Assembly (NCBI GenBank): GCA_044892505.1
Contig: CM097882.1
Location: 271,374,001-271,438,000 of the forward strand
Direction of reading: 5' to 3'
DNA: 64,000 bases
Source: Schmidtea nova
Taxonomy: Eukaryota
In this document: positions 37,701-56,752 of the stretch, piece after piece
How the letters are laid out: every line of letters begins with the position of its first letter
Numbering within the stretch: the first letter of the stretch is position 1
The notes under the pieces: generated by a model
Database searches by the model: none
What the model was told of the DNA's origin: nothing
Seen by the model: only the letters and a program-made list of their open reading frames with translations
Made by a program: the position numbers and the translations under genes

Positions 37701-40304
37701 TCTTTTTATTTTTTTGTGTAAATATTTCAGAAAACAATTATTTATTAAAAAGATTTTAAAAGGCTGTGTAGAATGTTCACTTTTTTAAAATTATAGTTCT
37801 AATAATTATTATATTAGTAAATAGTTTTTTAAAAAGTCCCTCCTTCACTTTTTACATAAATATTAAGAAAAGTACATAACATTTCAAAATATACCAACAA
37901 CTTCAATAATGCCAGAATTCACATATAAAAGGTTAACGTACCAAAAGTAAATTTTCTATTATAAATCAAACTCACTTTGAAAGGCAGGACGATCCTGAAT
38001 GGTCTGTTAGACGGACTCAATCAGTATAAATACTGAACCGAAAATCAGTGAGATATACCGAATTTTGTGAACTAGTCTTCAGGTCGACTTTACTGATCTT
38101 GAATTATTAATTTGGAAACTTTCGTTAGAACGAACCTTTGAGGATCGATAATTAAATTTTATTTTGTTGTATTAAATGTTATATGCTCCCATGATATTAT
38201 TCAATAATATATTATTTCATAATGTTGATTTTATGACCAATTTAGTAAAGTGTCCTCTGTAGCTCACGCTGCGAGGTTTCTATCCATCTCCTAGGGGTTT
38301 CTTAGCTCCGCAAGATAATGAGTACATTTAACAACAATGCTAACATGCAACTTTGTAACAATAGATAGCTAAAATGATTTTTGATAGTTTCAGGAGGAGC
38401 ACTGTAAATAGGAGGTTTCGGTTAGAAATTCATAGATAATTTTTTAGACATCACTGCACTGGAATGCATTGGATAGTGCCAAGGGCCATAAGGTTCGTAG
38501 CTAAATGGAAATTTTATGAGGGCAGAGTATTGATGAAAGTCTAAATTCGTCTAGGAATCATGCAATACATTTCTTAGGTTGATAATAGGCTCATTCGCAT
38601 TTTATACACTATTGTCGTAAAAGGAATAATCGAATACCTGTTGGGGACCCAATTAATTATCATTAATACAAGTAAGGGAGGATTGACGAGTTGGACGGAG
38701 GCGCTTGGTTTATTTTTTACAGTAAGATAGTAAAAATTTCCTTTTGCAAATAAAACGAGAAACGTCGTCATTAGCGCAACTTTCGTAGCTCGAGGTAATG
38801 ACGAAAGGTGTGTAGGCCAGCCAGCGGTAAATGGAAAGGTCATGTGTACAATTTTCGGGATTTCAATTTAGGGAACCAAGGACGGGTAAAAAAGATTCGA
38901 CATATCTCCACCAGACAGTAGCGTATGTGGATGCAAGTCAGTCATTGAGGCGGACGTCGATAATTATTAAATTCACCTATATGGAATTTTACAGAAATGC
39001 AATAAACCTGGCTGGAAGAGAAACAAAATCAAAATACACGACGATATCAGCATTCATTCTCAATCTGGATGAGCACAAAGGACGAAATATGGCATCATGT
39101 GGGATTCATTGTCCAATTCCAATGGGATCCACGTATTCACCACAATACGCTAGTTTACTGATCATCATCAAGAACAAACTGCAGCGACTAATTTATTGGG
39201 GCTACATTTCCCAATCTGAAATCCATGCACTTGTGTTGGTGTTGCTTCGCCCTCCTTGGTCACTCCGAAAACTTCAGAAAGTGAAATTTGATAGATTATC
39301 AAAATCGATAATGCGACAAAAACCCATCCGACTTGGACTACAAATTCAACTGATTTTTGCGTGGAATTCCACGTTATGCTTCGACTAAAAAATAATCATG
39401 TTGAGTGTATCAAATATATGTCTTCTTTCTTTGTGCGAAGTTGTCCGATTTAGTGAATGAATATAGGAATTTTCAGATGATTGACTGTTACTAAGTAAAA
39501 TTTAGTTTTGTTTATAATTCTATTTAAATAAAGAGTTAACTTCATGTTGAATAGAAGTATCTATATCATTTCAGTGTGTCAAAATATCAGGGAACTCGTG
39601 ATGCAATTACAAAGGCTTGAAATACTCAGAAAGGTCATGAACGAGAGATCGAAAACTGTAAGGCTCAGGTAATCAAAATCAGTACCTGCGTCAAACTCTG
39701 TTTACGCTGGTTTAAATGAAAACAGATTAGGCTCACGGAAAGAGCCAAACGAGCCGTCACCGAAACACAATAAGAGCTCGAGGCAACATAAATAGAATTA
39801 CGAAAATTCCGTAACTCGGTCACTTGATCGTTGGTTGAGAAAGAGTTAAAGGCTTGCATCCGACCCATCACGTTGCAACAATACACCGATCAATTAAATT
39901 TGACGATTTTATTGAAAATTAAATTATTATTTTATGTCAAATTTAAAAAAAAATTTAAATAAATTTATTTTATCACAAAATGTTTACTCTAAAAATAAGA
40001 TTTTATTAATTTACTAAAATTTGATAAATTTTTATTTGGTGGGTTTTTTGATTGTCAATATAACTTTGACGTTGCCCTGGCTCCCATCAACAACTCAACA
40101 CATAAAACATTAGTCAAAACAATCTTGTTGCCCGTCACAATGTAACGTTGGTAGTGCAACAAATGGGTAGATGTATGCAAACAGTGATCGTCTATAAATC
40201 GAAAATATGATTGACCGAACATTACAGTGGGTATCAAAAATATTATATATATATATATATATATATATTATCATAATTATCTTTTTTCACCTTTGATCTT
40301 TTTT

Positions 40305-40485
40305 TATTATTATTATCAATAATTCTCATAATGACTATAGATCAAATTATTTTATAAACAATAACACAATATTTCGGCACAGCCTTTATCAAGTGTGTAC
40401 ACACTTGATAAAGGCTGTGCCGAAATATTGTGTTATTGTTTATAAAATAATTTGATCTATAGTCATTATGAGAATTATTGATAAT

Positions 40486-40492
<7 letters not shown>
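40305..40492. repeat. Perfect 188 bp palindrome (94 bp arms, no spacer) flanked by (TA)n
   Basis: Checked base by base, centre between 40398 and 40399 (GTGTGT|ACACAC). Confidence 0.95.
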
Positions 40493-40521
<29 letters not shown>

Positions 40522-41667: not shown

Positions 41668-42729
41668 TGTTAGGGTTCGAGATCAAGGGATCTCGGGTTT
41701 TTGTAATTAAATATTATAAGTAAATAAATAAATATAAATAGCAATTAAGAATTACTATAAATAAATAGATAAATAGTAATAGTAAATAAATAATTACTAT
41801 AAATAAATATAGATTAAATATAGTAATAATTAAATAGTATATAATAAATATAGTAATAAATAAATACATGATACATTTAAATAATAATAATAAGTTATAT
41901 ATAGTAATAATAAATTACTTTAAATAAAAATATAATAGATATTTTTAAAGGTCATGATTAGTATGACCACCACCGCTTTATTTTCAACGTAGTAGTAAAC
42001 CTACTATCGCTTAAAAAAATTATATATATACTGATTGCAAAATCAGTTGAGGAGAAAAATTAATTTTTGAGCAGAAGAATTACGAGAAGTTCAGAGCAGA
42101 ACATAAGTGTTTACAGAATAGTGAATTTGAGAAGTTTAGTTCAAAGTTAAATTTGCGTGGAGAGAATAATTTTACAGAATTTCATTTGTGATAATTTTCC
42201 GAAATTGGAATAATCTTTGAGCAAATTATTAGCTGGTAAATTTTCTAGTTTGTTTTAATTCTATAAATCGATCACGGGGAAATAGTTATATTACTATTTT
42301 TCCCCTTCAGTAAAGTCGTTAAATAATAAATTATTAGAAGGGAAATTATTAGGTCACAGTGACAACCATTTCTGGGTTGTCACTATCGCGATTAAACTAC
42401 CGGGAATCCCTCGTCTTTTGTCCTTTCATTTAGTCGGAGCTGTTGAGCCTTTTAGGTCCAGCTTTCGTTCTTAAACTCTGAGGACGGTTTGTATAACCGA
42501 TTTTCTAACTTTTGCTTTGCAGCTATTTTATTATATTGTACATTGTTATACATATTTCACAATAAATTTTATTAAAACGAATTAGTTTTGTATTCTTTAC
42601 ACCCAACCTAAAACATATATTTTATTTATAATTAATAAGCGGATTATCGTTTGGAGTCCGATAATCAAATTAAAGTTTTAAATATATATACTTTCTGTGT
42701 TCGTCGTAACCACTGATACGAACCGAACA
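41668..42729 (+). repeat. 5' LTR
   Basis: Direct repeat of 55563-56624, with five substitutions seen by eye. AT-rich low-complexity U3, TATA-like run at about 42021, TCAGTT initiator-like motif at about 42045 and AATAAA at about 42561. Confidence 0.97.
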
Positions 42730-42732
42730 TTT

Positions 42733-42750
42733 TGGTGAGCCCGGCGTGAT
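42733..42750 (+). promoter_or_regulatory. Primer-binding site, tRNA-Trp
   Basis: TGGTGAGCCCGGCGTGAT matches 16/18 positions of the standard Trp PBS TGGTGACCCCGACGTGAT, 3 nt after the LTR. Confidence 0.85.
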
Positions 42751-42821: not shown

Positions 42822-45800
42822 ATGGCTGAAGAGAATAATGTTTTTGCTAGATATCCCGCTTTACCTGTCAAGGCATTTAGCGGAGATCCAGGAGAATTTC
42901 CGGAGTTTATGTCAGAGTATTATCAGATGGCAAAGGCCTATGGGTATCCAGATGCAATAATGATACAAAGACTGCCAATTTACCTTAAGGGTATGGCAAG
43001 GGAAAATTACAACGATATTATGGCGTTACCAGCAGCAGATAAACCAGGTACATGGGAAAAGATGAGAGAATCACTAACGGCTAGAATATTACCGGGAGAT
43101 TCAAGTAGAATTTTCCGACAACAATTTTATCACAGGAAGCAGAATGCAAATGAACATGTAGGAGAATTTTCCTATCAATTATTGTTATTAGCAGAAAGAG
43201 CATTTGGACTCAGAACTACCTGGAATGATGCAACTAAAGCTATGGTTAAAGACCAATTATTAGCTGGATTCACAAATGTTATGAGAAATGCATTGATTCT
43301 CCACACGGGAGATGATTTTTGGGAATTAACAAGAAAAGCTGTCGTAATCGAAAGCAGCTTAGAAAAGGCTACCTCATTTATGGTAAATAATGAGAAACCA
43401 GCAATTGAATGTTTTAACTGCCATAAGAAAGGGCACATATCAAAAGATTGCCACAGTAAGAAGGTAGCTGATACTCGTAGGGGTATTCAGTGTACTAAAT
43501 GTGGTATGAATAATCATAGTGTTGAGAACTGTAGAGTCACGAACTTGCAGTGTGATAAATGCAAACGCAGAGGGCATGTGGCTTCCGTTTGTAGAGTTAA
43601 AATTCTCCCCACGAATGGGAATTTTAATATAAAAAGGGATGATGTTAATTCATCAGGAAAGATAAAATGTCACGGATGTGGAAAATTCGGGCATATTCTG
43701 AGGTCGTGTCCTCAAAATCAGAGTAATAATACGAATAATAGGACTACCAATAGTGGTAATATCAGCAAGCCAAAAACTACGTTCATGGTCAATCACGATA
43801 AAGAATTGACGTATTTGCAACAACTGGAAATGGAAATCCAGGAGGAGAAAAATCGATTAGCACGGCTAATGGATCGAGATGATACAGTTTTTATGATTTC
43901 AGCTGAGAAAAATCATGCTCACACAGATGAGCGAGGAACAGTTTTGATGAATACAATTGAAGAAATAAATGAGACTCACACAGTTGGGCAAGAGACAGTT
44001 TTTATGATTTCAGCTGAGAAAAATCATGCTCATATGGATGGGCGAGGAACAGTTATAATGAATCCCATTGAGGAAAGCGATGATGCTCACACAGTTGGGC
44101 AAGGAACAGTTTTGATGATTTCAGCTGAGAAAAATCATGATGCTTACACAGACGAGCAAGGAAATAGTGAACTCATGGATTCCAGCAGCGAGAATCATGA
44201 GGTAATAGAATCAGAAACAAATTCTGATAATGATGACGAACCCAGTATGAGTACCATACTGAGCGAGTTCGACCAGGCTTTGTTCAAGGAAACAAAGGCC
44301 AAGAAAGGGTCAGATACCCTAGCAAAATGTTTAAAACTGGTGGATTCCAGATATGAGTATCAGCAGAGACTGACTCGAGAATTAGAGAAATTATCACAAG
44401 GTGATATCAAGAATAGTGAAATTGGAAAGATATTACAGTTAATATCTCAGGTCGAAGATGATCCAAGGTATCATAGCGACATACATAAAATCCTACGAAA
44501 GATAGGAACTGCAATGGAACATGAATGGGATCTTCAGGATTCGCATTTAAACATAAAACTTCCTCAGGAGCAGGAGTTTAACATCGACATGAATGTAAGA
44601 TGTCGAACAGATAAGTTGTCAGATACAGTGATGAAATTGAAACTTAATAGATATGATTTTTATCTATATGGAGAAAAGTTAGTAGTTGGGGAAACACTAC
44701 TACAAAATGGTGTATTACCAGGAAGGGTAACGAAACTCACAACGAAACTGACAGGAATATCGGTCCCAGTAGTGGATCAAGACAGTGTGTTTCTACTCAC
44801 ACAAATGGAAATTGCACAGTTGGAGGAAGTCCAACAAATAGAGCAACGTCTGAAGATAGAGTTGCAGAAATCTCCGAGGGATGCAGAAACAATCAAGGAA
44901 ATATTAGACTGGATGTTGGTATTGCGCATACCAGTAGAATCATTGGAGAATATAATTCCTATTCTACTACCTGTAGCAAAGGAAACTAGTTCATTTCAAA
45001 CGGAAATAAAAATGTTAATGAGGAAAAATGGAACAGCAATACGTCATCAAGCACATCGACAAGGCATGATAACTTTAGACCTTCGAATATCGGGAAAAGA
45101 ACCCATGACGAGATTATATCGCTGTTTTAGCAAAGTGATAACGTTGAGAAAAGATTTAATAGATACTGGGCAGACTACCGGTATATTCTTGATTATGATT
45201 CATGGAGGGCAAGTGGATGATGATGAATATTTAGTAGATGTGGGATGTCTACCATTTGAAACGACAACAGTAGCAATCATTCCCGTAGAGCCACCTGAAT
45301 CTCAATGGTCAGCATTACGGTTACCAGATGAAATGGTCACTGGTAATGTTGAAACACAACCATTTAATGTAGATATCGATGCCGATAATCACGGAGAAGA
45401 GGAAATCAGACTCAATAATGAGGAAACTAACGTGGGAGCTTCAAATTCTCGGGCGGTAGAAACTGTCAGGCCAGCATGGCAGATAAAGAAAGATAGGCGA
45501 GGAAGGCCTAGGAAAGATCAAATGAAACCTCCACCAACGGAGCAATTAAACCAAGAAACCATTAAACAGGTTCAGATGAAAACCCTGTCAGGAATAGCCA
45601 GGGATGTTGATATGAGAGACGAGGGTGTACATATACCAGAAAAATCTCTGACATGGAAGAGATTAAAACAGATCATAGGAATATTAAAGCCGGAATGGCA
45701 GATCACTCGGATTAAAGGAATTCAAGTGGATAAAGTGACACAGTCAATCGCGAAGACGATGAGGAGATTACCTAAAGGGGTACCGCAAAACGAGATACAG

Positions 45801-48356
45801 AATATGTTAGAGACACTCATACAAGATGGGTTATCTAAAGGAAAAATAGTGACAGCATTATCTATGTTGATTCAAGATGCCTTAGCCCGCGCAGGCAATG
45901 AGAAGAAACTTATTAATCGAGAAATAGACCAGATCACGGAGATAACGGAGCATTATCTCGGAACGTGGATGAGTGAAAATAACTTCTGGGAAGAGGAGAA
46001 ACATAAACTACGATATGAATTCGTGGAAAAGGCTATGAATAACAACCACCTCGGAAATGGAGGAATGGGGAATATGACGAATATGATATTAATGTTTTTA
46101 GTAATGATGGGAATAATGAAACAGACAAACACAATGACAGCGTTTGATTGCAGTGATCCAAAGTTAGCTCGGATATATTCGCTAGTAGATGCAATTGAGT
46201 GCAAAGAGGCATACCCAGAGAAAGTCCAAACAGGAGAAAAGGTCGAATACTATGTTTATCAAGAAAGTGAATTCTTCAGAACTAAGATAAGAGAATGTAG
46301 AGTCCAAAGAGCGACATTTGAATATTATTGTGGTTCACACAGCTATACAGCCTTTCTATCAGCCACTCTAATACCCAGACCTGTCAACATATTGCCAGAA
46401 GATTGTCTTGACGCCTTTCGAAAAGGTACTTTAAGAATCGATAACGAGGTAACCATCGCCGCGGAAGTAGGAAAAACATTGGGAGTAACCATTACACGAG
46501 GAGGATCAATCGGATCAGATGGTACCTGTTCGGGAAGAAAGAAAACTCGCGGATCGGAGTTGGTAAGTTTTGTCGTAGATATTGAGGACTATTCAATCGA
46601 ATTAAGAGAATACGAAGGGACGTTCGATGTATTATCAGGAAGATTAATGGCACACCCTCAGTGCCTTGCGAAATTTGGAAGCTGTAGAACAGGGGTCATT
46701 ACATTATTATACGATCAAATACTAGACCATTGCGAATTGTCATTACTAAAGAAAATTAATTTCCATAAGTTGAACGGGACAAAGTATCGAGATTTACCCA
46801 AAAGAGAAAGAATTTGGGATAAAGAAAAGACGTTGAAAAGGATCAACAAACAGCAAAAAGAGGATATTAGTGAGGAAATCACACCTCTAGTATTAGTATC
46901 AGAAGATAAGAAAGATGCAATCAGATTTGTCAGAAAAGATAAGAAGACAAAATGCGGAAAAGTGGTGTATGAGACCAACTATAAAGGATTATATTTGTCA
47001 AAAACATTTATCCAAAAGGCCAAGAATATTCACAGCCAGGATATCAAAATCACGAACTATATAAATAATAAAATAGATTATTTATATCATGATCTGCAAG
47101 GACAAATGCAGGAAATGTATCAGGAAGTAATACTTAATGATTGCAAACTAAATCGCGAAATAGTTCGAAATCGGTTAGCGATATCAATCGTGAATCCGGA
47201 TCTAGTGACACCTATGTTGCTAGAAGATGGAATGTTTGGCAGAATTATGGGGGAAGCTATATACAGCTATCAATGTCAACCCATAGAGGTACAATTAACA
47301 CGGTACAATGAATGTACTCTAGAATTACCAGTGTCATATCAAAACAAAATACGATTTGTAATGCCAGTAACGAGGAGACTTTTGGATGAAAAACAAAAGC
47401 CTCAACCTTCAATTTGCAATCCAGCAATATCACCGTTATACAAGGTAAATGATAGATGGATCTCATTACCTGACAGAAAACCATCTAATAGAAAGGTGGA
47501 AACATTGGAAGTCACGAAACTCGAGGAAAACATGGAATTTAAATCACTCGATGAATTATCACAAGGAGGAATTTACACTCCAGTAGACATTGAGGAGGCA
47601 AGACAGACGTTGCTATTTCCTCAAGTAAGAGAAAGAGGTATCACTGAAATCATAAGAACAATTTACCAAGCAAACGAAATGAGACCAGATTACAATTTAT
47701 TATTCGGTCCAGATCATTATAAAGAAGCAGCTAAAAATGTGATGATGAAAATATGGGGAAGGTTTACCAATTTTGGTATATTCGTGGCAGGCTGCTCAGG
47801 AATATATGCAATATTCGTAATTCTAAAGTTAATAATAACACAATTAATTTCCACATACAGCATATTCAAAATCGGTGGATGGTCTTGGAAGTTGATACTA
47901 GGATTGTGTCCTATGTGTGCGGAATTTGCATTGTTTAAACATCATCGTAAAGAAATAAAGACAATCAAACAGAGAAGCTTGGTTAAACACGAGATTATTG
48001 GAATCGAAATGGAGGGTAATACAAGTTATCGGGACGATAACAATTCGGAAGGAGGAGGTAATGGAGACTCTCTTAATACAGTTCAGAGGCAAAGTAGAAG
48101 TCGAAAAAGAAACTACAATAAAAAACCGAATCATCAATTAAGGAAAATGAAATATCGGGATTATCAACCACCTTACGAAGCGACAAAACAGATTTTCGAC
48201 AAAAGTATGATTTCAGAAGATGAATACGATAGTGCAGACCAGAAATTTGCAATCAATACAGCATCACCTAGATTGAAAAGAAGCCCAAGATATATGCAAT
48301 TGCCATATCTTAGAAGCTTACCAACAGCGCCAAAGGGGGAATCGCCAGAGTTTTAA
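42822..48356 (+). CDS. Gag-Env polyprotein, 1844 aa: capsid, 4 CCHC knuckles, 37-aa repeats, two Ubl-like domains, AT-hook, signal peptide, chuvirus-like glycoprotein, TM, basic tail
   Basis: Uninterrupted ORF. Knuckles at 43410-43709, RGRPRK at about 45498, hydrophobic signal at about 46086-46120, AFDC...YYCGSHS...CG...NKIDYLY...CKL...GEAIYSYQC...ELPV cysteine pattern and TM at about 47772-47870. Confidence 0.93.
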   Translation: MAEENNVFARYPALPVKAFSGDPGEFPEFMSEYYQMAKAYGYPDAIMIQRLPIYLKGMARENYNDIMALPAADKPGTWEKMRESLTARILPGDSSRIFRQQFYHRKQNANEHVGEFSYQLLLLAERAFGLRTTWNDATKAMVKDQLLAGFTNVMRNALILHTGDDFWELTRKAVVIESSLEKATSFMVNNEKPAIECFNCHKKGHISKDCHSKKVADTRRGIQCTKCGMNNHSVENCRVTNLQCDKCKRRGHVASVCRVKILPTNGNFNIKRDDVNSSGKIKCHGCGKFGHILRSCPQNQSNNTNNRTTNSGNISKPKTTFMVNHDKELTYLQQLEMEIQEEKNRLARLMDRDDTVFMISAEKNHAHTDERGTVLMNTIEEINETHTVGQETVFMISAEKNHAHMDGRGTVIMNPIEESDDAHTVGQGTVLMISAEKNHDAYTDEQGNSELMDSSSENHEVIESETNSDNDDEPSMSTILSEFDQALFKETKAKKGSDTLAKCLKLVDSRYEYQQRLTRELEKLSQGDIKNSEIGKILQLISQVEDDPRYHSDIHKILRKIGTAMEHEWDLQDSHLNIKLPQEQEFNIDMNVRCRTDKLSDTVMKLKLNRYDFYLYGEKLVVGETLLQNGVLPGRVTKLTTKLTGISVPVVDQDSVFLLTQMEIAQLEEVQQIEQRLKIELQKSPRDAETIKEILDWMLVLRIPVESLENIIPILLPVAKETSSFQTEIKMLMRKNGTAIRHQAHRQGMITLDLRISGKEPMTRLYRCFSKVITLRKDLIDTGQTTGIFLIMIHGGQVDDDEYLVDVGCLPFETTTVAIIPVEPPESQWSALRLPDEMVTGNVETQPFNVDIDADNHGEEEIRLNNEETNVGASNSRAVETVRPAWQIKKDRRGRPRKDQMKPPPTEQLNQETIKQVQMKTLSGIARDVDMRDEGVHIPEKSLTWKRLKQIIGILKPEWQITRIKGIQVDKVTQSIAKTMRRLPKGVPQNEIQNMLETLIQDGLSKGKIVTALSMLIQDALARAGNEKKLINREIDQITEITEHYLGTWMSENNFWEEEKHKLRYEFVEKAMNNNHLGNGGMGNMTNMILMFLVMMGIMKQTNTMTAFDCSDPKLARIYSLVDAIECKEAYPEKVQTGEKVEYYVYQESEFFRTKIRECRVQRATFEYYCGSHSYTAFLSATLIPRPVNILPEDCLDAFRKGTLRIDNEVTIAAEVGKTLGVTITRGGSIGSDGTCSGRKKTRGSELVSFVVDIEDYSIELREYEGTFDVLSGRLMAHPQCLAKFGSCRTGVITLLYDQILDHCELSLLKKINFHKLNGTKYRDLPKRERIWDKEKTLKRINKQQKEDISEEITPLVLVSEDKKDAIRFVRKDKKTKCGKVVYETNYKGLYLSKTFIQKAKNIHSQDIKITNYINNKIDYLYHDLQGQMQEMYQEVILNDCKLNREIVRNRLAISIVNPDLVTPMLLEDGMFGRIMGEAIYSYQCQPIEVQLTRYNECTLELPVSYQNKIRFVMPVTRRLLDEKQKPQPSICNPAISPLYKVNDRWISLPDRKPSNRKVETLEVTKLEENMEFKSLDELSQGGIYTPVDIEEARQTLLFPQVRERGITEIIRTIYQANEMRPDYNLLFGPDHYKEAAKNVMMKIWGRFTNFGIFVAGCSGIYAIFVILKLIITQLISTYSIFKIGGWSWKLILGLCPMCAEFALFKHHRKEIKTIKQRSLVKHEIIGIEMEGNTSYRDDNNSEGGGNGDSLNTVQRQSRSRKRNYNKKPNHQLRKMKYRDYQPPYEATKQIFDKSMISEDEYDSADQKFAINTASPRLKRSPRYMQLPYLRSLPTAPKGESPEF

Positions 48357-51300
48357 AAGACATCAGGAGAAGGCAAGTCAAGTTATGCTTTAACCATACC
48401 AAGAAACAAAATGTACATTTCTAAACATCAACAAATTCTCGACAAAGAGGCTCGAGAAACAGGTAAAAGCATATCATTATCGTTAGAAAATGAAGGGAAA
48501 CTGTATCCTATCGAGTCGTTAGAAGCAATAAAAGCAAAATTCAAGGAATATAATCCAAAATTGAGTGATACCGAACAAGATGAAGCAGAGAAATTCAGAG
48601 CAAATACCATCGGGATAACGCATGCTACTATTTTGATGGCAAATGGGGTGAACTTGGATAAGAAACCCATGATAAAGATAAAAATAAACTGACACACAGT
48701 TAATGCAGTGATAGATTCAGGAGCAGACGGCACCATCATAGAGGCAACACTATTAAATCAAAAAGAATTGGAATCAATGGAAACCTCTAGAGTTTCGCTA
48801 ACAGGTGCTACAGGCACATCATTGAATATTATCGGTACTCTAGTTTGCAACATCAAGCTATGTGACCAAGAATTTCGTCATGATATTATAGTCATGAGAA
48901 CTTGTCCAGTAGAATGTCTACTAGGAATGGATCTTTTAAGAAGATTAAAAGGAGTTGTGTTCGATTGTGCTACCGGATTGTTAGTTAGATCAATCGGTAA
49001 GAAAAGAAAAGTTTATAATGATGATACAGTTTTCATCGATCATACGATGATAATACCACCAAGAGCAGAAACAGTATGTTTCGTGTCCACTAGCGAACAG
49101 TGGGAAGGAGAAGTTGTATATTCGAACCAGATGAAAGGTTCTCAGCAAAATATAATCTACCAATTACGCATAGCGTTGGTAAAGTTGAAAATGGCAGAAT
49201 ACCAATTCGGGTAGCCAATTTAGATATAAAACCATTAAAATTGTACCCAGATACAAGAGTAGGGAGAGTATCAAAGTCGGATCAATTACCGATTGGGGGA
49301 TCTGTCCTGACAGTGAAGGCAGAGAATAGAGAACCAGACATCGAGTACTATGATGCGCCAACGGCAAATAGTAAAGCTCTTTCACGAAGAGAGAATATTC
49401 AAGTAAACATGTTGTTAAGAAAATATGATCAAGTATTCGCCAAGCACGAATATGATCTGGGAAAGACGAACTTGTTGGAACATGAAATTGTTCTTAACAA
49501 TACGAAACCAATAAAACTGAGACCGTATCGAATTCCGTTTAGCTTGGAAGAACCTGTCGATAAGCAGGTAAAACTGATGTTAAAACATAACATCATCAGG
49601 CATAGTAAATCACCATACCAGTCACCAATGATAGTGGTGGCAAAAAAGGATGGAACAGTACGACTATGCAACGACTATCGAATGGTAAACGAAGCAACTT
49701 GCAAGGATAGTCACCCATTACCATTATTGGATTACATTTACGGACGCATGAGAAATTCAAAATATTTCTCAGTGATGGATGCTCAGAAGGGATTTTACCA
49801 AATCAAGTTAAAAGAGGAGACAATACCAATTACGGCTTTTTCTACAAGCCTTGGACACTTCGAATATACAGTAATGCCATTTGGTCTTACAGGAGCGCCG
49901 GCAACGTTTCAAAGAGCCATGAATCTAATGTTAATGGATGTTCATCATGCAATGGTATACATAGATGACATCATTGTATTTTCTCCAGATTTGGAAAAAC
50001 ATTTAGAACATTTAGAGGACGTATTCAAAAGGTTAATTAATGCAAATCTTAAGGTAAAACCATCAAGATGTAAATGGGCCGAATCAGAAGTAGTCTATGT
50101 CGGTCACATTATCTCGAAGGATGGAGTAAAACCAGATCCAGCAAATGTTGAGAAAGCAAAGAATTTTCCAGAGTCAAAGACAGTCAAACATATTAAAGGG
50201 TTTTTGGGCTTAGTGGGATATTACAAGAAGTTCATCAGAAACGTTTCGGCCATAGCGTTTTCTCTGACACAATTAGAGGGAACAAATGTCAAATTTGTAT
50301 GGGGAAAAGAGCAACAGGGAGTATTTGATATGCTAAAAAGGATGCTCGTGGAACCTCCCATATTACGATTTCCAAATTTTTGAAAAAAAACTTTTGGTCA
50401 TGACAGACGCCAGCACTCGGGGTATTGATGCTGTGTTAGGTCAAAGAGATGACCTACGCGATGAATATGCCATAGTGTAAGCTAGCAGAGGATTGAAACC
50501 GCATGAAAAGAATTATGTAGTTATTGAATTAGAGGCATTTGCAATCGTTTATGCTATCAATCAATTTAGGACGTATTTATGGGGTCGAAAGATCATTGTG
50601 TATACGGATCATAGACCATTACAGTGGTTAACAAAGCATACTATGGATACATCAAAATTGGTTAGATGGGCATTGATCTTGCAGCCGTACGACATCGAAA
50701 TACATTACCGAAAAGGACATCAAAATGGGAATGCAGATGCATTTTCTCGAATGGACCAGGGTGATGAAGCAGAAGACGTTAAGGAAGGAAGATTAGAAGG
50801 AACAATCTTCGCACTTACAAGAGAAGCAAACAGACTCGCGGATTTAATGGCAGCACAACAATCGGATGAAGAGATAAACCAAATCAGACAGGCTTTAGAA
50901 GCAAAGTTCATACCGACGGAATTTAATAAATATTGGGAGAAAAATCGAGACAAATTTATCCTAGAAGAAGGATTAGTCAAATATGTGGATGTAAGGGATA
51001 ATGTCATAATGGTCCCTAAGAAATATCGGGAAGCCTTGATGTTACAATATCATGATGGAGCACTGGGAGGGCATTTATCTTCCAGGAAAACATTGTCAAG
51101 GTTGAAGCAGAAATATTTCTGGCCGACAATCAAACAAGACGTACAGGAATGGTGTCAGACATGTAAGATCTGTATCACCAGGAGAAATACGGGGAAGAAA
51201 CCTCATGTGCCAATGAAACCAATGCCAGTACCATCCACACCGATGGAAATGACGGCGATGGATATTTTAGGGCCATTCAAAGAATCAAATAGTGGTAACA

Positions 51301-53093
51301 AATACATATTGGTATTTTGCGATTACTTGACGAAATGGCCGGAGGCTTATCCGATACCGAATCACAAGGCAGATACGATAGCCAGGATTTTCGTAGAGCA
51401 AATTGTTTTTAGGTATGGAGTACCTACAAAACTACTAACAGATAGAGGAGCAGATTTCATGAGTAATCTGTTAAAAGGAATAAATGATTATTTCGACATT
51501 TTAAAACTGAATACCTCTCCATACCATCCACAAACAGACGGATTGGTAGAGAGATTTAACGGAACGCTCGCAAATATGCTAGCATCATACGTAAATTCAG
51601 GGCAAACGGATTGGGATATACATATTCCATCATGCCTATTCGCATACAGAAATGCTGTTCATGAGGGTACGGGACAAACGCCGTTCTATCTCATGTATTT
51701 AAGGCAAAGTAAAATGCCTATAGACTTGTTGTTTTTCCCAAAAGCAACGCAGTATCTAGACCAAGAAGATTACCTCATGGAAATGAGAGAAAGAATGCAA
51801 GAAGCATGGACAAAAGCAGGTCTTAGTATAAAATTCAGTCAGGAAGCGTCGAAAGATTATCATGATAAGAAAGCCAAAGGACATGGCATGTTAGTTGGAG
51901 ATAAGGTGATGTTAGAAAGCCATTATAATAAAAAGGGCTTATCACCTAAATTAATGAGAAACTTCAAAGGACCGTATGAGGTTTTGAGAACCACAGACAC
52001 GAATTTAATCTTGCAATTAGTAGCAAATAGAAAAGCTGAACCAATAATGGTACATGCTAACAGATGCAAGAAAGTTGCGGTCACGGAGAAAGATCCGATT
52101 AAGAAAAAGGAGGATAAAGGGTCAGAACCAGTCTCAGACAGATATCCATTACGATCAAGAAGCGTGCCAAAATCAGTTACGTTTTTGGTAATAATAAGTT
52201 GCCTTATATCCTGTGTAAAGACATTTGTTCCAACAGCGGTACAAATTCAAGATCTCGCATTTAGAAGATCTTTCCAGGAATTTAGAATAATATCATTAGC
52301 TGAAAATGATACCAAATTCAAGTTCTCGTTTTGCGAACGACGTTGTTTCCATTTTACATTGGATTCAAACACAAGAGTGAAAGTCATAAAGGACTTACGA
52401 GCAGAAAAGGAATATTTATTAGATATACTTGTTCAACATTTTATGTTCGGACGATGGTCAGATTTTTCAAAGTCACAATGGAAGCTGAAGACAGCAGATT
52501 TCAAAAGGAAAGTTAGAATAAATATCCAACAAGGTATGATTACCTTCAGCCAACCAAAACAAGGAGTGGATAGAGTAAAGATAGAAATCCATTCCGACAA
52601 GGAAATAGTACAAGAATTGTGGCTAAATGAAGATATTGAGAAACAAAATCTCAAGTGGAACAGCTCAGTGGAGTGGGAAGCTCATATCACTTATATGAAT
52701 AATAAACAAAAGCCCGGAGTCGATGAATGGAATGAGGTATTTTATGAAGTAATCTCTTTGAAATTACCACAATCATCGACGACAACGAAATCGGTTACAT
52801 CAATTATACGGAAAGAAAGTTACGTCATTCATCCTGCAATATGGCAGAGATTGAAAGGATTGAAAATGGTAAAACCAACAGTATCAACAGAAAGCTATAT
52901 TAAAAGTTGTCAGTGTGAAATTAACGAAGTAAACCCCATTACTCACTTGGGAAAATTACCCGTTGGGGTATGGATTATTACGTCAGCAGTATTATCTATG
53001 ATCACTACATTAATAGCAATGGGGGTTTGGATGAAATTATTCTTCAGTCAGGCTATTGAGTCGGTTGATGGGATTATGATGACGAGATTATGA
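48357..53093 (+). pseudogene. pol (PR, dUTPase-like linker, RT, RNase H, integrase) plus in-frame C-terminal membrane protein; four lesions
   Basis: IDSGADGT, RLCNDYR, YIDD, TDAS, ELEAFAIV, YTDH, HHCC, DILGP/TDRG/VERFN and GPYEV. Lesions: TGA 48690, -1 nt near 49108, +1 nt near 50381, TAA 50478. Confidence 0.93.
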
Positions 53094-53207
53094 CAATTAC
53101 AGATAAAATCACATATTTGTATTTATATATATATTAAAATCTATAATCTTGTTGAGCTCCGAGTAGCATTAACTTACAGCATAAGTAGATCCCGTAAATC
53201 GAGATTT

Positions 53208-55268
53208 ATGCATTTCTTTTTAGCCAATATTGGCATATCAGTATATCTGATATTAACGTTAATTATTTTTCTTTCAGATATGAAGCATCAAGTGTCACAA
53301 TACAAGCAGCGTTACAGCACTATCGATGTGCAAACAATACAGAAGGAAAAACTGATTTATCGAAACATCGAAAAAGCGATATCCGCAGAAGCACGGAAAG
53401 GTCGTCGCTATTGGTATTACGGGCACTGCACCGGCATCCCGAACAATTTTAAGTTTCTTGGATCACCTAAGAGACAAATGTGCATAGTCACAATTACCAG
53501 CCGTGAGAACACCCGGTTGACTGAACACATGGCGGAATTTAACAGATCAACATTTACTCACCATCTCCTGATTCACGCGATCAATAAACCCTTTACAATC
53601 TTCATGGCAGGAGCCACAGGACCTATCCTACTTCAACCAGAATCAACTCTAGAAATTAGTAACGGAGATGGCAGAGAAAAGAATATCTCCATCCAATGTG
53701 AAGGATATAATACCATTGTGGTATTAGAGATTTTGGAACCCAGCAAGGCAGTGCAATCATTGTGGAAAAATGAACCTGCCTGGACCTATAATGTGAATGA
53801 GAACGATCTCAAATCATTCAAATCCTTTGTTCGGATGAATCTGCACCCCAATCAAGAAGATAGGTTGTCAATATTTATTGCAGCGCATTACGCAACTTTG
53901 CGAGATTATTTAAAGCCAGCTTTGGTGGCTGTTTCGATAGCAAACTACTGTGGTGATTTAATACTAAACACGGTGGTTACACCCAGAAACCAGGTCAAAC
54001 ATTACCAATCGCACGCGCATGGTATGACCGAAAAAGAAATCATCGGACAATTTGACGGAGAGGATTGCGCAGACCGTATTAGGAAATTATGTGATGGGAA
54101 AATCCTAATAGGTCTCCAAGTCAACGATTTCTTGGAAGCAGTCCAGTTACACCCTCAACGAGTTTTGGGAATTAGAGAACTAGGAGCAGCAAAATGCCTG
54201 GAAGCGAGAGAACTAAAGAAATGTAACGGACATTATCGACTCGCGTATTTATCAAAGTCAATTCTCGAAAAGGAAGAACTAAACCGTTCAGATCTGAAAA
54301 CGGAAAATGACGTGGAAACGACACGTAATATTTACCTTAAACTGAGAGAAGTTTGGGTAGATGACATCACCCCAGGTAATCGTAGTGGGACGATTACATC
54401 AGAAGTCAAAATGGTTCATACAATACAGCCACAAGAAACGAGTAAAAGGAAAGCTATTGAGAGCTTACCCCAGGAACAGCCATTATCAACCAAATTGCAA
54501 AAGATAGTTGAGGAAGAATCACTATCCCCTCCAGCTATATCCTTAGCTGATGAAGACGATTACGCCACCTGCGAAAGCGAGGGTGAGGAACAAACAGAGA
54601 TGCGTTTAACTTTACACGGAGACAGCCGTACAAAGATCGTGCCAGAAAATCCACCAAAGAAAGAGAACAAGCTCTTGGAAAAAGTTACTAAGACTTTTCA
54701 AAAATTGACTTCAGTAGAAAAGTCATTCCCAAAGAAAAGTCAAGAACCTGTTGTAAGGTTACAAGATCTAAAGATCAAGAAGAAAGTACCAAATCTCCTC
54801 TCGACGGAAGACAAAGATTTAATCGAAACAGCATTCGTTCCACCCGATATGGAACAGATTCCTGAGGTTAAGGGCGAACCTATCATTATAAGAGAAGGGG
54901 ATTTCGTTGGAACGGGAAACTCAGCAAAGATACCCCAGGATTTGGACAATGAAGACCCTAGTTTTTGGCAGCGACCAGAGAGAAATTGGGTACCTCGGAT
55001 AAAAGAATACGACGGGAAACCGGTACACCAATCATCAGTTTCAAACTTCCCTTACTATGGCGTATTGGAGGCCAACGGAAAATCATACGTGATTTCTTCT
55101 TTGGTATATAAGGAAGTTGAAACACGTGAAACATTGGTGGTCAGCTATAGACCAGATATAGTGGAAGATCGCATCAGGAACGAACAAGCGCATATTCGCA
55201 AGAGAGCAGCTCAAAACCTATTCGCGAAGGATAACAAGCATTGCTGCTACGTTCAATCCAAGGTCTAG
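53208..55268 (+). CDS. Accessory ORF3 with a degenerate DEDDh (REXO4/ISG20-like) exonuclease domain at about 53859-54356
   Basis: LVAVSIANYCGDLILNTVVTPRNQVKHYQSHAHGMTEKEI...KILIGLQVNDF...ENDVETTRNIY aligns by eye with REX4 ARVSIVN.G....D..VKP...V.DYRT.VSGI...ILVGH.L..D...EDA.....LY. Possible alternative start at ATG 53280 after TTTCAG. Confidence 0.75.
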   Translation: MHFFLANIGISVYLILTLIIFLSDMKHQVSQYKQRYSTIDVQTIQKEKLIYRNIEKAISAEARKGRRYWYYGHCTGIPNNFKFLGSPKRQMCIVTITSRENTRLTEHMAEFNRSTFTHHLLIHAINKPFTIFMAGATGPILLQPESTLEISNGDGREKNISIQCEGYNTIVVLEILEPSKAVQSLWKNEPAWTYNVNENDLKSFKSFVRMNLHPNQEDRLSIFIAAHYATLRDYLKPALVAVSIANYCGDLILNTVVTPRNQVKHYQSHAHGMTEKEIIGQFDGEDCADRIRKLCDGKILIGLQVNDFLEAVQLHPQRVLGIRELGAAKCLEARELKKCNGHYRLAYLSKSILEKEELNRSDLKTENDVETTRNIYLKLREVWVDDITPGNRSGTITSEVKMVHTIQPQETSKRKAIESLPQEQPLSTKLQKIVEEESLSPPAISLADEDDYATCESEGEEQTEMRLTLHGDSRTKIVPENPPKKENKLLEKVTKTFQKLTSVEKSFPKKSQEPVVRLQDLKIKKKVPNLLSTEDKDLIETAFVPPDMEQIPEVKGEPIIIREGDFVGTGNSAKIPQDLDNEDPSFWQRPERNWVPRIKEYDGKPVHQSSVSNFPYYGVLEANGKSYVISSLVYKEVETRETLVVSYRPDIVEDRIRNEQAHIRKRAAQNLFAKDNKHCCYVQSKV

Positions 55269-55550
55269 CAATAAGCTATGACAACTATCAATCAAACAAT
55301 TAGCATTTCGGCTATGTGATCAACAATCCAACTCTTACAGACAGTTATTATTTGATATCGATTGTGATCAACATTACTTATGTATTATGCGTTTTATGAG
55401 ACTCATTTGTTTTATGTGATTTATTTTAATTTTTATTGACCAGGTGCAGTCAATGTATATATATGCATGTGTTGTTATTTTATTTTTTATTTTATGGCTG
55501 CGTAACCTTCTTGTCTTTTCCGCTTTAATTTTCGGGACGAAAATCTTGTT

Positions 55551-55560
55551 AGGGGGAAGA
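55551..55560 (+). promoter_or_regulatory. Polypurine tract
   Basis: AGGGGGAAGA, 2 nt before the 3' LTR. Confidence 0.88.
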
Positions 55561-55562
55561 CA

Positions 55563-56624
55563 TGTTAGGGTTCGAGATCAAGGGATCTCGGGTTTTTGTA
55601 ATTAAATATTATAAGTAAATAAATAAATATAAATAGCAATTAAGAATTACTATAAATAAATAGATAAATAGTAATAGTAAATAAATAATTACTATAAATA
55701 AATATAGATTAAATATAGTAATAATTAAATAGTATATAATAAATATAGTAATAAATAAATACATGATAAATTTAAATAATAATAATAAGTTATATATAGT
55801 AATAATAAATTACTTTAAATAAAAATATAATAGATATTTTTAAAGGTCATGATTAGTATGACCATCACCGCTTTATTTTCAACGTAGTAGTAAACCTACT
55901 ATCGCTTAAAAAAATTATATATATACTGATTGCAAAATCAGTTGAGGAGAAAAATTAATTTTTGAGCAGAAGAATTACGAGAAGTTCAGAGCAGAACATA
56001 AGTGTTTACAGAATAGTGAATTTGAGAAGTTTAGTTCAAAGTTAAATTTGCGTGGAGAGAATAATTTTACAGAATTTCATTTGTGATAATTTTCCGAAAT
56101 TGGAATAATCTTTGAGCAAATTATTAGCTGGTAAATTTTCTAGTTTGTTTTAATTCTATAAATCGATCACGGGGAAATAGTTATATTACTATTTTTCCCC
56201 TTCAGTAAAGTCGTTAAATAATAAATTATTAGAAGGGAAATTATTAGGTCACAGTGACAACCATTTCTGGGTTGTCACTATCGCGATTAAACTACTGGGA
56301 ATCCCTCGTCTTTTGTCCTTTCATTTAGTCGGAGCTGTTGAGCCTTTTAGGTCCAGCTTTCGTTCTTAAACTCTGAGGACGGTTTGTATAACCGATTTTC
56401 TAACTTTTGCTTTGCAGCTATTTTATTATATTGTACATTGTTATACATATTTCACAATAAATTTTATTAAAACGAATTAGTTTTGTATTCTTTACACCCA
56501 ACCTAAAACATATATTTTATTTATAATTAATAAGCGGATTATCGTTTGGAGTCCGATAATCAAATTAAAGTTTTAAATATATATACTTTCTGTGTTCGTC
56601 GTAACCACTGATACGAATTGAACA
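55563..56624 (+). repeat. 3' LTR
   Basis: Direct repeat of 41668-42729, followed by TSD CTTA. Confidence 0.97.
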
Positions 56625-56752
56625 CTTACAGTCCCTCGGGAGTGTGCGAGATAGATTCTGACGAAGATTGTTCATCGATTTGTGCTGACGTTAATGTAAT
56701 TGTAGGATATGAAAAATATTAATTAATGTGTTCTTTATTATTCATTTATATA

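Follow-up and report, generated by a model that had tools for sequence, protein, structure and literature searches.

Two signals for programmed readthrough of a stop codon bear on the locus described here: type I, in which UAG is followed by CAR-YYA and which is used by tobamoviruses, beny- and pomoviruses and Providence virus (PMC3542737, PMC2754532), and type II, in which UGA-CGG is followed by an extended stem-loop approximately 8 nt downstream, as in alphaviruses and in tobra- and furoviruses (PMC3542737). The type I hexamer also works behind UGA (PMC3542737, PMC4132726), with about 15% readthrough in a mammalian reporter (PMC4132726), and tryptophan has been found at UGA in the context of the tobacco mosaic virus (TMV) stop in plants (PMC2754532). 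Among retroelements with long terminal repeats (LTRs), SIRE1 of soybean (Sirevirus, Ty1/copia) passes from pol to an env-like open reading frame (ORF) by stop codon suppression, with only the stop codon between the two (PMC2829016). Gag-env-pol errantiviruses with an env of the herpes simplex virus (HSV) glycoprotein B (gB) type are described from flatworms, nematodes and bryozoans (PMC13524379), the order gag-env-pol being shared by Burro/GYPSM1 (PMC6431247), and the bdelloid LTR elements Juno and Vesta encode a DEDDy exonuclease as ORF3 (PMC5408684). According to the same paper ORF3s typically come from spliced messages, and its accessible part makes no mention of readthrough; for the third ORFs of gypsy-type elements, the literature covered describes splicing. 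Here we analyse a gag-env-pol Ty3/gypsy insertion in a stretch of 64,000 nucleotides from Schmidtea nova (contig CM097882.1, positions 271,374,001 to 271,438,000; hereafter the window), in which the stop codon of pol is followed by a type I motif and by an open, in-frame spacer that leads into a third ORF (ORF3). The TGA at 53091 is likely a programmed leaky stop that lets a minority of ribosomes read through to ORF3, most of which would probably be made from spliced RNA, so that both routes would be in use.

The stop codon of pol and the spacer behind it

The RNase H-integrase frame (50481-53093) is closed by a TGA at 53091-53093 that is embedded in TTA TGA CAA TTA CAG ATA (53088-53105), such that the stop is directly followed by CARYYA (TGA CAA TTA, 53091-53099), whose chance of standing after a given stop is about 0.002 at the base composition of the element. 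From 53094 to 55268 the frame of pol is free of stops, with 62 codons up to the ATG at 53280 and then the 662 codons of ORF3, so that the downstream ORF is both in frame and open; the motif, the open spacer and the TTTCAG ending at 53277, just before this ATG, lie exactly where the preliminary description of this DNA had placed them. The spacer (186 nt, GC content 26%) holds 0 stops in the pol frame versus 8 and 5 in the other two frames and was open in 0.7% of 20,000 dinucleotide shuffles (p 0.007). The usual UAG of natural type I cases is replaced by UGA. The fold of the whole spacer of the window copy is not notable (z -1.6), and an Rfam search of 52900-56700 with E up to 1 gave 0 matches, thus providing no selenocysteine insertion sequence (SECIS) support for selenocysteine.

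Protein and DNA searches of the genome revealed five more families (six in total, A to F, the window copy belonging to A), whose ORF3s are 40-66% identical; in the pol tail, A shows 26-29% identity to B, C, E and F. Of 216 loci, 207 matched a family junction and 5 were unalignable at the stop or the ATG, and de-duplication yielded 137 copies. A stop followed by CARYYA and an open in-frame spacer, respectively, were found in 60/61 and 50/61 copies of A1, 5/6 and 3/6 of A2, 12/13 and 11/13 of B, 14/17 and 5/17 of C, and 9/13 and 6/13 of D, whereas E (0/17 and 0/17) and F (0/10 and 0/10; 0/27 open for the two together) have neither, their pol ending in TAA or TAG and their spacer carrying 2-11 stops. 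When the 25 loci that had been fetched by motif-bearing patterns are set aside, the counts become 53/54 and 49/54 for A1, 0/1 and 0/1 for A2 and 4/8 and 4/8 for D, the others being unchanged; the counts for C and D retain old copies that are incomplete or align poorly, and these account for several of the misses.

Four of the six families (A-D) keep TTA TGA CAA TTA C and, in their best-kept copies, have open in-frame spacers of 99-201 nt; the commonest lengths (189, 201, 108, 105 and 99 nt) are every one divisible by three, and where subfamilies differ in spacer length they do so by 3, 6, 9 or 12 nt, which preserves the frame. When representatives of A, B, C and D are anchored on the stop, a 13-nt block is invariant as opposed to 4 of the other 50 columns (-30 to +33), the motif thus being kept while its flanks diverge, and in A and D the 11 nt after the stop are those that follow the leaky stop of TMV (as given by the primers printed in PMC2754532). 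The preliminary description had proposed a comparison across copies, with a motif and spacer that are not conserved as the outcome that would tell against readthrough; that comparison found both conserved in A-D. Family A copies picked by their ORF3 protein alone have TTA TGA CAATTACAG in 45/45 cases and a spacer open in frame in 42/45, but A copies are about 98% alike and the 45/45 therefore says little by itself. Frame-broken spacers, which arise from the (TA)n tract, occur in 4/51 usable young copies, and because the nearest neighbour of each is an in-frame copy they look like later (TA)n slips. In a single old copy of family B (L133) the hexamer is intact but the stop has become a sense codon, probably through a later mutation.

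Structure downstream of the stop is unremarkable in A1, A2, B and D (z 0.0 to -1.1), and the value of -2.5 in C comes from a TA repeat. With respect to the encoded peptide, the best 19-residue hydrophobic window of the spacer was reached by 1-3% of open shuffles in A1, A2 and B, by 7-10% in D and C, and by 0.2% in the distant relative L274 (see below); a hydrophobic stretch is present in A, B, D and L274 and weaker in C.

The conserved block might alternatively be a second splice acceptor, with TGAC as branch point and TTACAG ending at 53102, which would join an upstream exon in frame and skip the stop. In favour of such an acceptor, which would explain the open spacer, A, B and D all retain the CAG at +10 to +12, and this CAG is in phase 0 with ORF3; however, family C keeps TGACAATTAC yet has no AG there, L274 is without a matching site, the block has 6/12 pyrimidines compared to 8-11 at the downstream site, its branch A would lie 10 nt from the end rather than the 14-17 nt of the downstream sites, and the same CAG follows the TMV stop, which involves no splicing. 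We regard this explanation as very improbable. An ATG also overlaps the stop (ATGA at 53090) and opens 15 codons in the -1 frame (53090-53137). That this ATG, which is present wherever TTA TGA is, has been selected for itself as the start of a short peptide after stop-start reinitiation is less probable still, as the mini-ORF (8-22 codons in most copies) varies freely and does not reach ORF3 in intact copies, and as the open zero frame and the CGG stem-loop of L274 would be left unexplained.

L274 is a metagenome contig found with P0009 (reverse transcriptase 50% and ORF3 28% identical), in which env, protease, reverse transcriptase, integrase, a signal-like segment and a transmembrane helix lie in one frame of 2,643 codons. 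This frame ends in TTA TGA CGG TTA and is followed by 53 open codons (0.6% of shuffles open) and ORF3. At 8 nt downstream of this stop a predicted stem-loop begins (-23.1 kcal/mol, z -3.06, 1/200 shuffles; outer stems also in the centroid), so that L274 combines the two features of a type II signal, a UGA followed by CGG and a predicted extended stem-loop about 8 nt after the stop. Scans with A2 (metagenomes and viral contigs) and with P0006, P0007 and P0101 (viral contigs) found no related loci. Two different known readthrough signals thus occupy the same stop, which is hard to explain except by selection for leakiness.

Several points weigh against this reading. The type II case is one contig only, the families yield shuffle p-values that are not independent of one another, and the best-kept copies served as representatives. 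Only 5/17 C and 6/13 D copies, which are old, are open and in frame, and three old copies (L063, L064 and L173) have a second stop directly after the TGA. The spacer peptide is not conserved: shared variants in young A spacers comprise 2 synonymous and 3 non-synonymous changes versus 5-17 synonymous ones in each of ten coding windows, a constraint at the nucleotide rather than the protein level, indicating that part of the conservation of the spacer serves RNA functions. With neither the motif nor an open spacer, E and F are young families with many copies, and readthrough is therefore dispensable for this group. A is basal in the ORF3 tree and D stands beside E+F (moderate support, 84/89), a topology that suggests loss of the leak signal in E+F; a test of the motif-bearing families as one clade, with groups named after the first tree had been seen, gave a split result (approximately unbiased test, p-AU 0.02 without and 0.10 with L061). 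Finally, as regards the splicing part of the reading, 0 spliced genomic copies were found with the one pattern tried (one kind of junction).

Some of these points would suit a scenario in which ORF3 is made by splicing only and readthrough serves no purpose, the motif and the open spacer being kept for an RNA-level reason or being left over from an older fusion of pol with ORF3: constraint on the spacer acts at the level of nucleotides, its word ATCAGTAT stands in different frames in A versus B, its peptide shows no conservation, and the families that lack the motif, E and F, do well. We consider this scenario quite unlikely, because it does not account for the presence, at one and the same stop, of two known but unrelated readthrough signals, nor for a frame kept through changes in length, and because the spacers of E and F, which filled with stops after loss of the motif, are what a free spacer looks like. 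Readthrough that is under selection, as a second route beside splicing, is in our view the best reading of the sequences.

Splicing as a probable route to ORF3

Of the 5 acceptor-like sites in the element, the one at 53277 is the richest in pyrimidines and the only one between 49988 and the 3' LTR. The TTAAT word 14-17 nt upstream, the T-rich tract and the YAG are kept in A1, A2, B, C, D, E and F, where the acceptor lies 2, 2, 6, 6, 7, 7 and 16 nt, respectively, before the ATG, and a T-rich AG site occurs at the same place in L061 and in L274 (13 nt before the ATG in the latter). A conserved 3' splice site before an ATG of its own is what a spliced subgenomic ORF3 mRNA calls for, and the phase of the acceptor relative to the frame varies among families, which fits a non-coding leader and translation from ORF3's own ATG. 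The acceptor is kept more widely than the leak signal, in all six families, L061 and L274, including E and F; as these two families have no leak signal or open spacer, splicing is the simplest route to ORF3 there. The donor of the ORF3 mRNA is perhaps the site at 42735, and the donor-like word CATTTTG/GTGAGC is also present in families C, E and F.

Near the junction, A2, B, C, E and F (L149, L072, L074, L084 and L127) share the word CTCACC, which is absent from the window copy. It is complementary to the GGTGAG of the primer-binding/donor-like site (window 42733-42739), making long-range pairing between the two possible. In a comparison of L084 and L127 (families E and F), the pol tails are 97% identical and the ORF3s 66%, which points to recombination at the pol/ORF3 junction. 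L061 and L273 carry an ORF3 of a seventh family (49% identical to that of the window) with an acceptor-like site; the 6.5 kb fetched upstream contain no pol, and a short coiled-coil-like frame precedes ORF3.

The breadth of the acceptor bears on whether ORF3 could be made solely by stop suppression, with the acceptor-like site unused in this family. The motif and open spacer in four families and L274 speak for such an exclusive use of readthrough, as does the lack of a spliced genomic copy with the pattern tried, but E and F have an intact ORF3 and the same acceptor despite several spacer stops and no leak signal, most E copies have an in-frame TAA just before the ATG, the acceptor and the Met right after it are kept in every family, and in the distant relatives P0001, P0002 and P0004 the called protein likewise begins with a Met at this position (P0002, searched against the genome of the window, found family A only). 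We therefore judge it unlikely, albeit slightly less so than splicing alone. The preliminary description had proposed that ORF3 is made by stop suppression, with splicing as an alternative. The comparison supports the first proposal, in that motif and open spacer go together and L274 has a type II signal, although readthrough is probably not the only route; the second holds insofar as the acceptor is widely kept, including in E and F, and the two routes more likely coexist than exclude each other.

With both routes in use, most ribosomes would stop at the UGA and release a polyprotein that ends in a membrane module, whereas some would insert an amino acid, continue through the 62-codon spacer and add ORF3, at a level of a few to about 15% by analogy with reporters. 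Spliced RNA, using the acceptor at 53277, the ATG at 53280 and perhaps the donor at 42735, would give free ORF3 and is presumably the larger source. Readthrough would instead tether ORF3 to the membrane, as a continuation of the fibronectin-like module with which pol ends. If the hydrophobic stretch of the spacer crosses the membrane, ORF3 would face the lumen or the outside, an odd and unexplained location for a nuclease fold.

The element and its protein modules

The element (Table 1) is a young insertion, as judged by LTRs that are 99.4% identical (1065 aligned nt), and has the LTRs, primer-binding site, polypurine tract and target-site duplication of a gag-env-pol Ty3/gypsy errantivirus. 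Its domains follow the Ty3/gypsy order (protease, reverse transcriptase, RNase H, integrase) and not that of Ty1/copia, in which integrase precedes reverse transcriptase. A mononegavirus/chuvirus-like (gB-type) glycoprotein stands between gag and pol, in one frame in intact copies. The preliminary description had likened the site to the pol/env-like junction of SIRE1-type elements, but it is itself no pol/env junction, as the fusion glycoprotein sits inside ORF1, between gag and protease. In the window copy pol is broken near 48356, 48692, 49100-49200 and 50380-50480, and the stop that ends the gag-glycoprotein ORF1 at 48356 is a break particular to this copy. Among 10-kb stretches of other copies, gag-env-pol forms a single frame of >3,270 codons in 4/12 of family A, 2/2 of E and 1/2 of F, whereas those from B, C and D (n=4) are all decayed. 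Since gag-env-pol is one frame in intact copies, the TGA at 53091 ends the whole polyprotein.

Table 1. Features of the element in the window (positions count from the first letter of the window).
Feature	Positions	Strand	Remarks
5' LTR (TG...CA)	41668..42729	+	flanked by 4-bp target-site duplication CTTA; 99.4% identical to 3' LTR
Primer-binding site	42733..42750	+	presumably tRNA-Trp-like; holds splice-donor-like G/GTGAG at 42735
gag (CCHC knuckles) fused in frame to Monjiviricetes-type fusion glycoprotein	42822..48356	+	PF24664 E 6e-90; PF00098
Protease, reverse transcriptase, RNase H, integrase	48357..52160	+	
Pol tail module	52161..53090	+	signal-like hydrophobic segment, ~270-aa beta ectodomain, transmembrane helix, 20-aa tail
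Candidate readthrough site TTA TGA CAA TTA CAG AT	53088..53104	+	11 nt 3' of stop as in TMV leaky-stop context
Open in-frame spacer, 62 codons	53094..53279	+	(TA)n tract; hydrophobic 19-mer near spacer end
Splice-acceptor-like site	53256..53277	+	TTAAT branch-like word, 11/12 pyrimidines, CAG
ORF3, 662 aa	53280..55268	+	beta-rich (cupin-like) N-terminal part, ISG20/ISG20L2-like DEDDh fold, poorly conserved C-terminal part
Polypurine tract	55551..55562	+	
3' LTR	55563..56624	+	

The transmembrane helix of pol ends about 20 residues before the stop, and the layout of the pol tail is common to B, C, E, F and L274, just the helix being detected in D. A structural model of the tail (mean predicted local distance difference test, pLDDT, 49.5) matched tandem fibronectin III domains throughout the match list, and the ectodomain may, at low confidence, consist of two fibronectin-III-like domains; the word-index protein search gave no match for the tail and Pfam nothing meaningful. 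A receptor-like or adhesion module may have been captured here, next to the fusogen.

ORF3 has an RNase T/ISG20 fold and is not env-like. The model of residues 1-357 (pLDDT 89.7) matches ISG20L2 and ISG20 (Foldseek E 3e-8 to ISG20L2, TM-score 0.82 on the target), and the best ESM Atlas score (0.83, RNase_T) is a lead only, while the word-index protein search with ORF3 gave no match. In an alignment of the window protein with 20 others, 18 of them taken from 98 matches, PF00929 is matched by 8/21 members, the window protein itself not being among these. The DEDDh catalytic residues are kept in the distant relatives P0006-P0008, P0013, P0014, P0016, P0017 and P0020 and are lost in the group around the window ORF3, which reads FIAAHY where relatives such as P0006-P0008 have MDAEF or LDAEF. 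As ORF3 is thus without the D-x-E acidic pair of ExoI and the His of ExoIII that an active DEDDh enzyme has, it is likely a pseudonuclease.

A broader scenario, which we put forward tentatively and hold to be somewhat doubtful, would tie these features together. In it, a lineage of envelope-bearing animal gag-env-pol elements would produce two versions of an accessory protein, a free one through splicing and a membrane-bound one through leaky termination where a polyprotein of more than 3,300 residues ends; the need for the second form would be old enough for the leak signal to have been swapped, at the same stop, between two classic viral types (TMV-like CARYYA versus UGA-CGG plus stem-loop); and the product of readthrough would expose, beside a fibronectin-like module, a catalytically dead, RNA-binding domain of the ISG20 type at the membrane of the particle or the cell, where it would act as a decoy for RNA-directed defences of the host.

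Three observations concern other parts of the stretch. The gag region has about three repeat units of 111 nt (43881-44159), each with a T-rich AG word, one of which passes the acceptor scan at 43902. Just upstream of the element lies an AT-rich palindrome (40296-40501; 103-nt, 96% perfect). One contig of 'organism B' spans the stretch with 6 letters different, which shows presence only.

Comparison with known systems

To our knowledge, readthrough from pol into a third gene is known only from one plant copia element, and the SIRE1 stop context is reportedly CARYYA. If the present reading is true, it extends this strategy to animal Ty3/gypsy elements and provides a natural experiment, with four families bearing a type I signal, two without it and one relative whose signal at this codon is of type II, in which exchange and loss of a signal can be tested. 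Like SIRE1, the element is an LTR retroelement whose probably leaky pol stop leads in frame to a third ORF; unlike SIRE1, it is an animal Ty3/gypsy element with a spacer of 32-66 codons, a nuclease-fold ORF3, env upstream of pol and a splice acceptor that has been kept. The analogy to SIRE1 drawn in the preliminary description therefore stands for the mechanism, but not for the junction, since here pol is followed by a spacer of 62 codons and the ORF3 behind it is unlike env. The literature covered (full text including PMC3441728, with most subscription papers and Repbase outside it) contains no report of readthrough at a pol-ORF3 junction in animal gypsy elements.

With viral type I signals the locus shares the CAAUUA hexamer, the A before the stop, the 11 nt after the stop as in TMV and the lack of a conserved downstream structure, differing in its UGA instead of the usual UAG; the likeness to type II is confined to L274 and does not extend to the window copy. 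As in the gag-env-pol errantiviruses, env lies in frame between gag and pol in an element of about 15 kb, and one flatworm env row in the supplement of PMC13524379 shares words with the window Env (by eye, not aligned). Two modules would be additions to that group, a membrane protein with fibronectin-like domains that closes pol and a pseudonuclease of the ISG20 type. In the accessible parts of the paper, neither ORF3 nor the membrane module of the pol tail nor a leaky stop is described for these errantiviruses, and the main text mentions no nuclease, read-through or splicing (PMC13524379). Burro is twice as long and carries other cargo (PMC6431247). Juno and Vesta likewise have a DEDD-superfamily ORF3 after pol (PMC5408684), but the ORF3 described here is of the DEDDh (ISG20-like) type, has an added N-terminal domain and has lost its catalytic residues.

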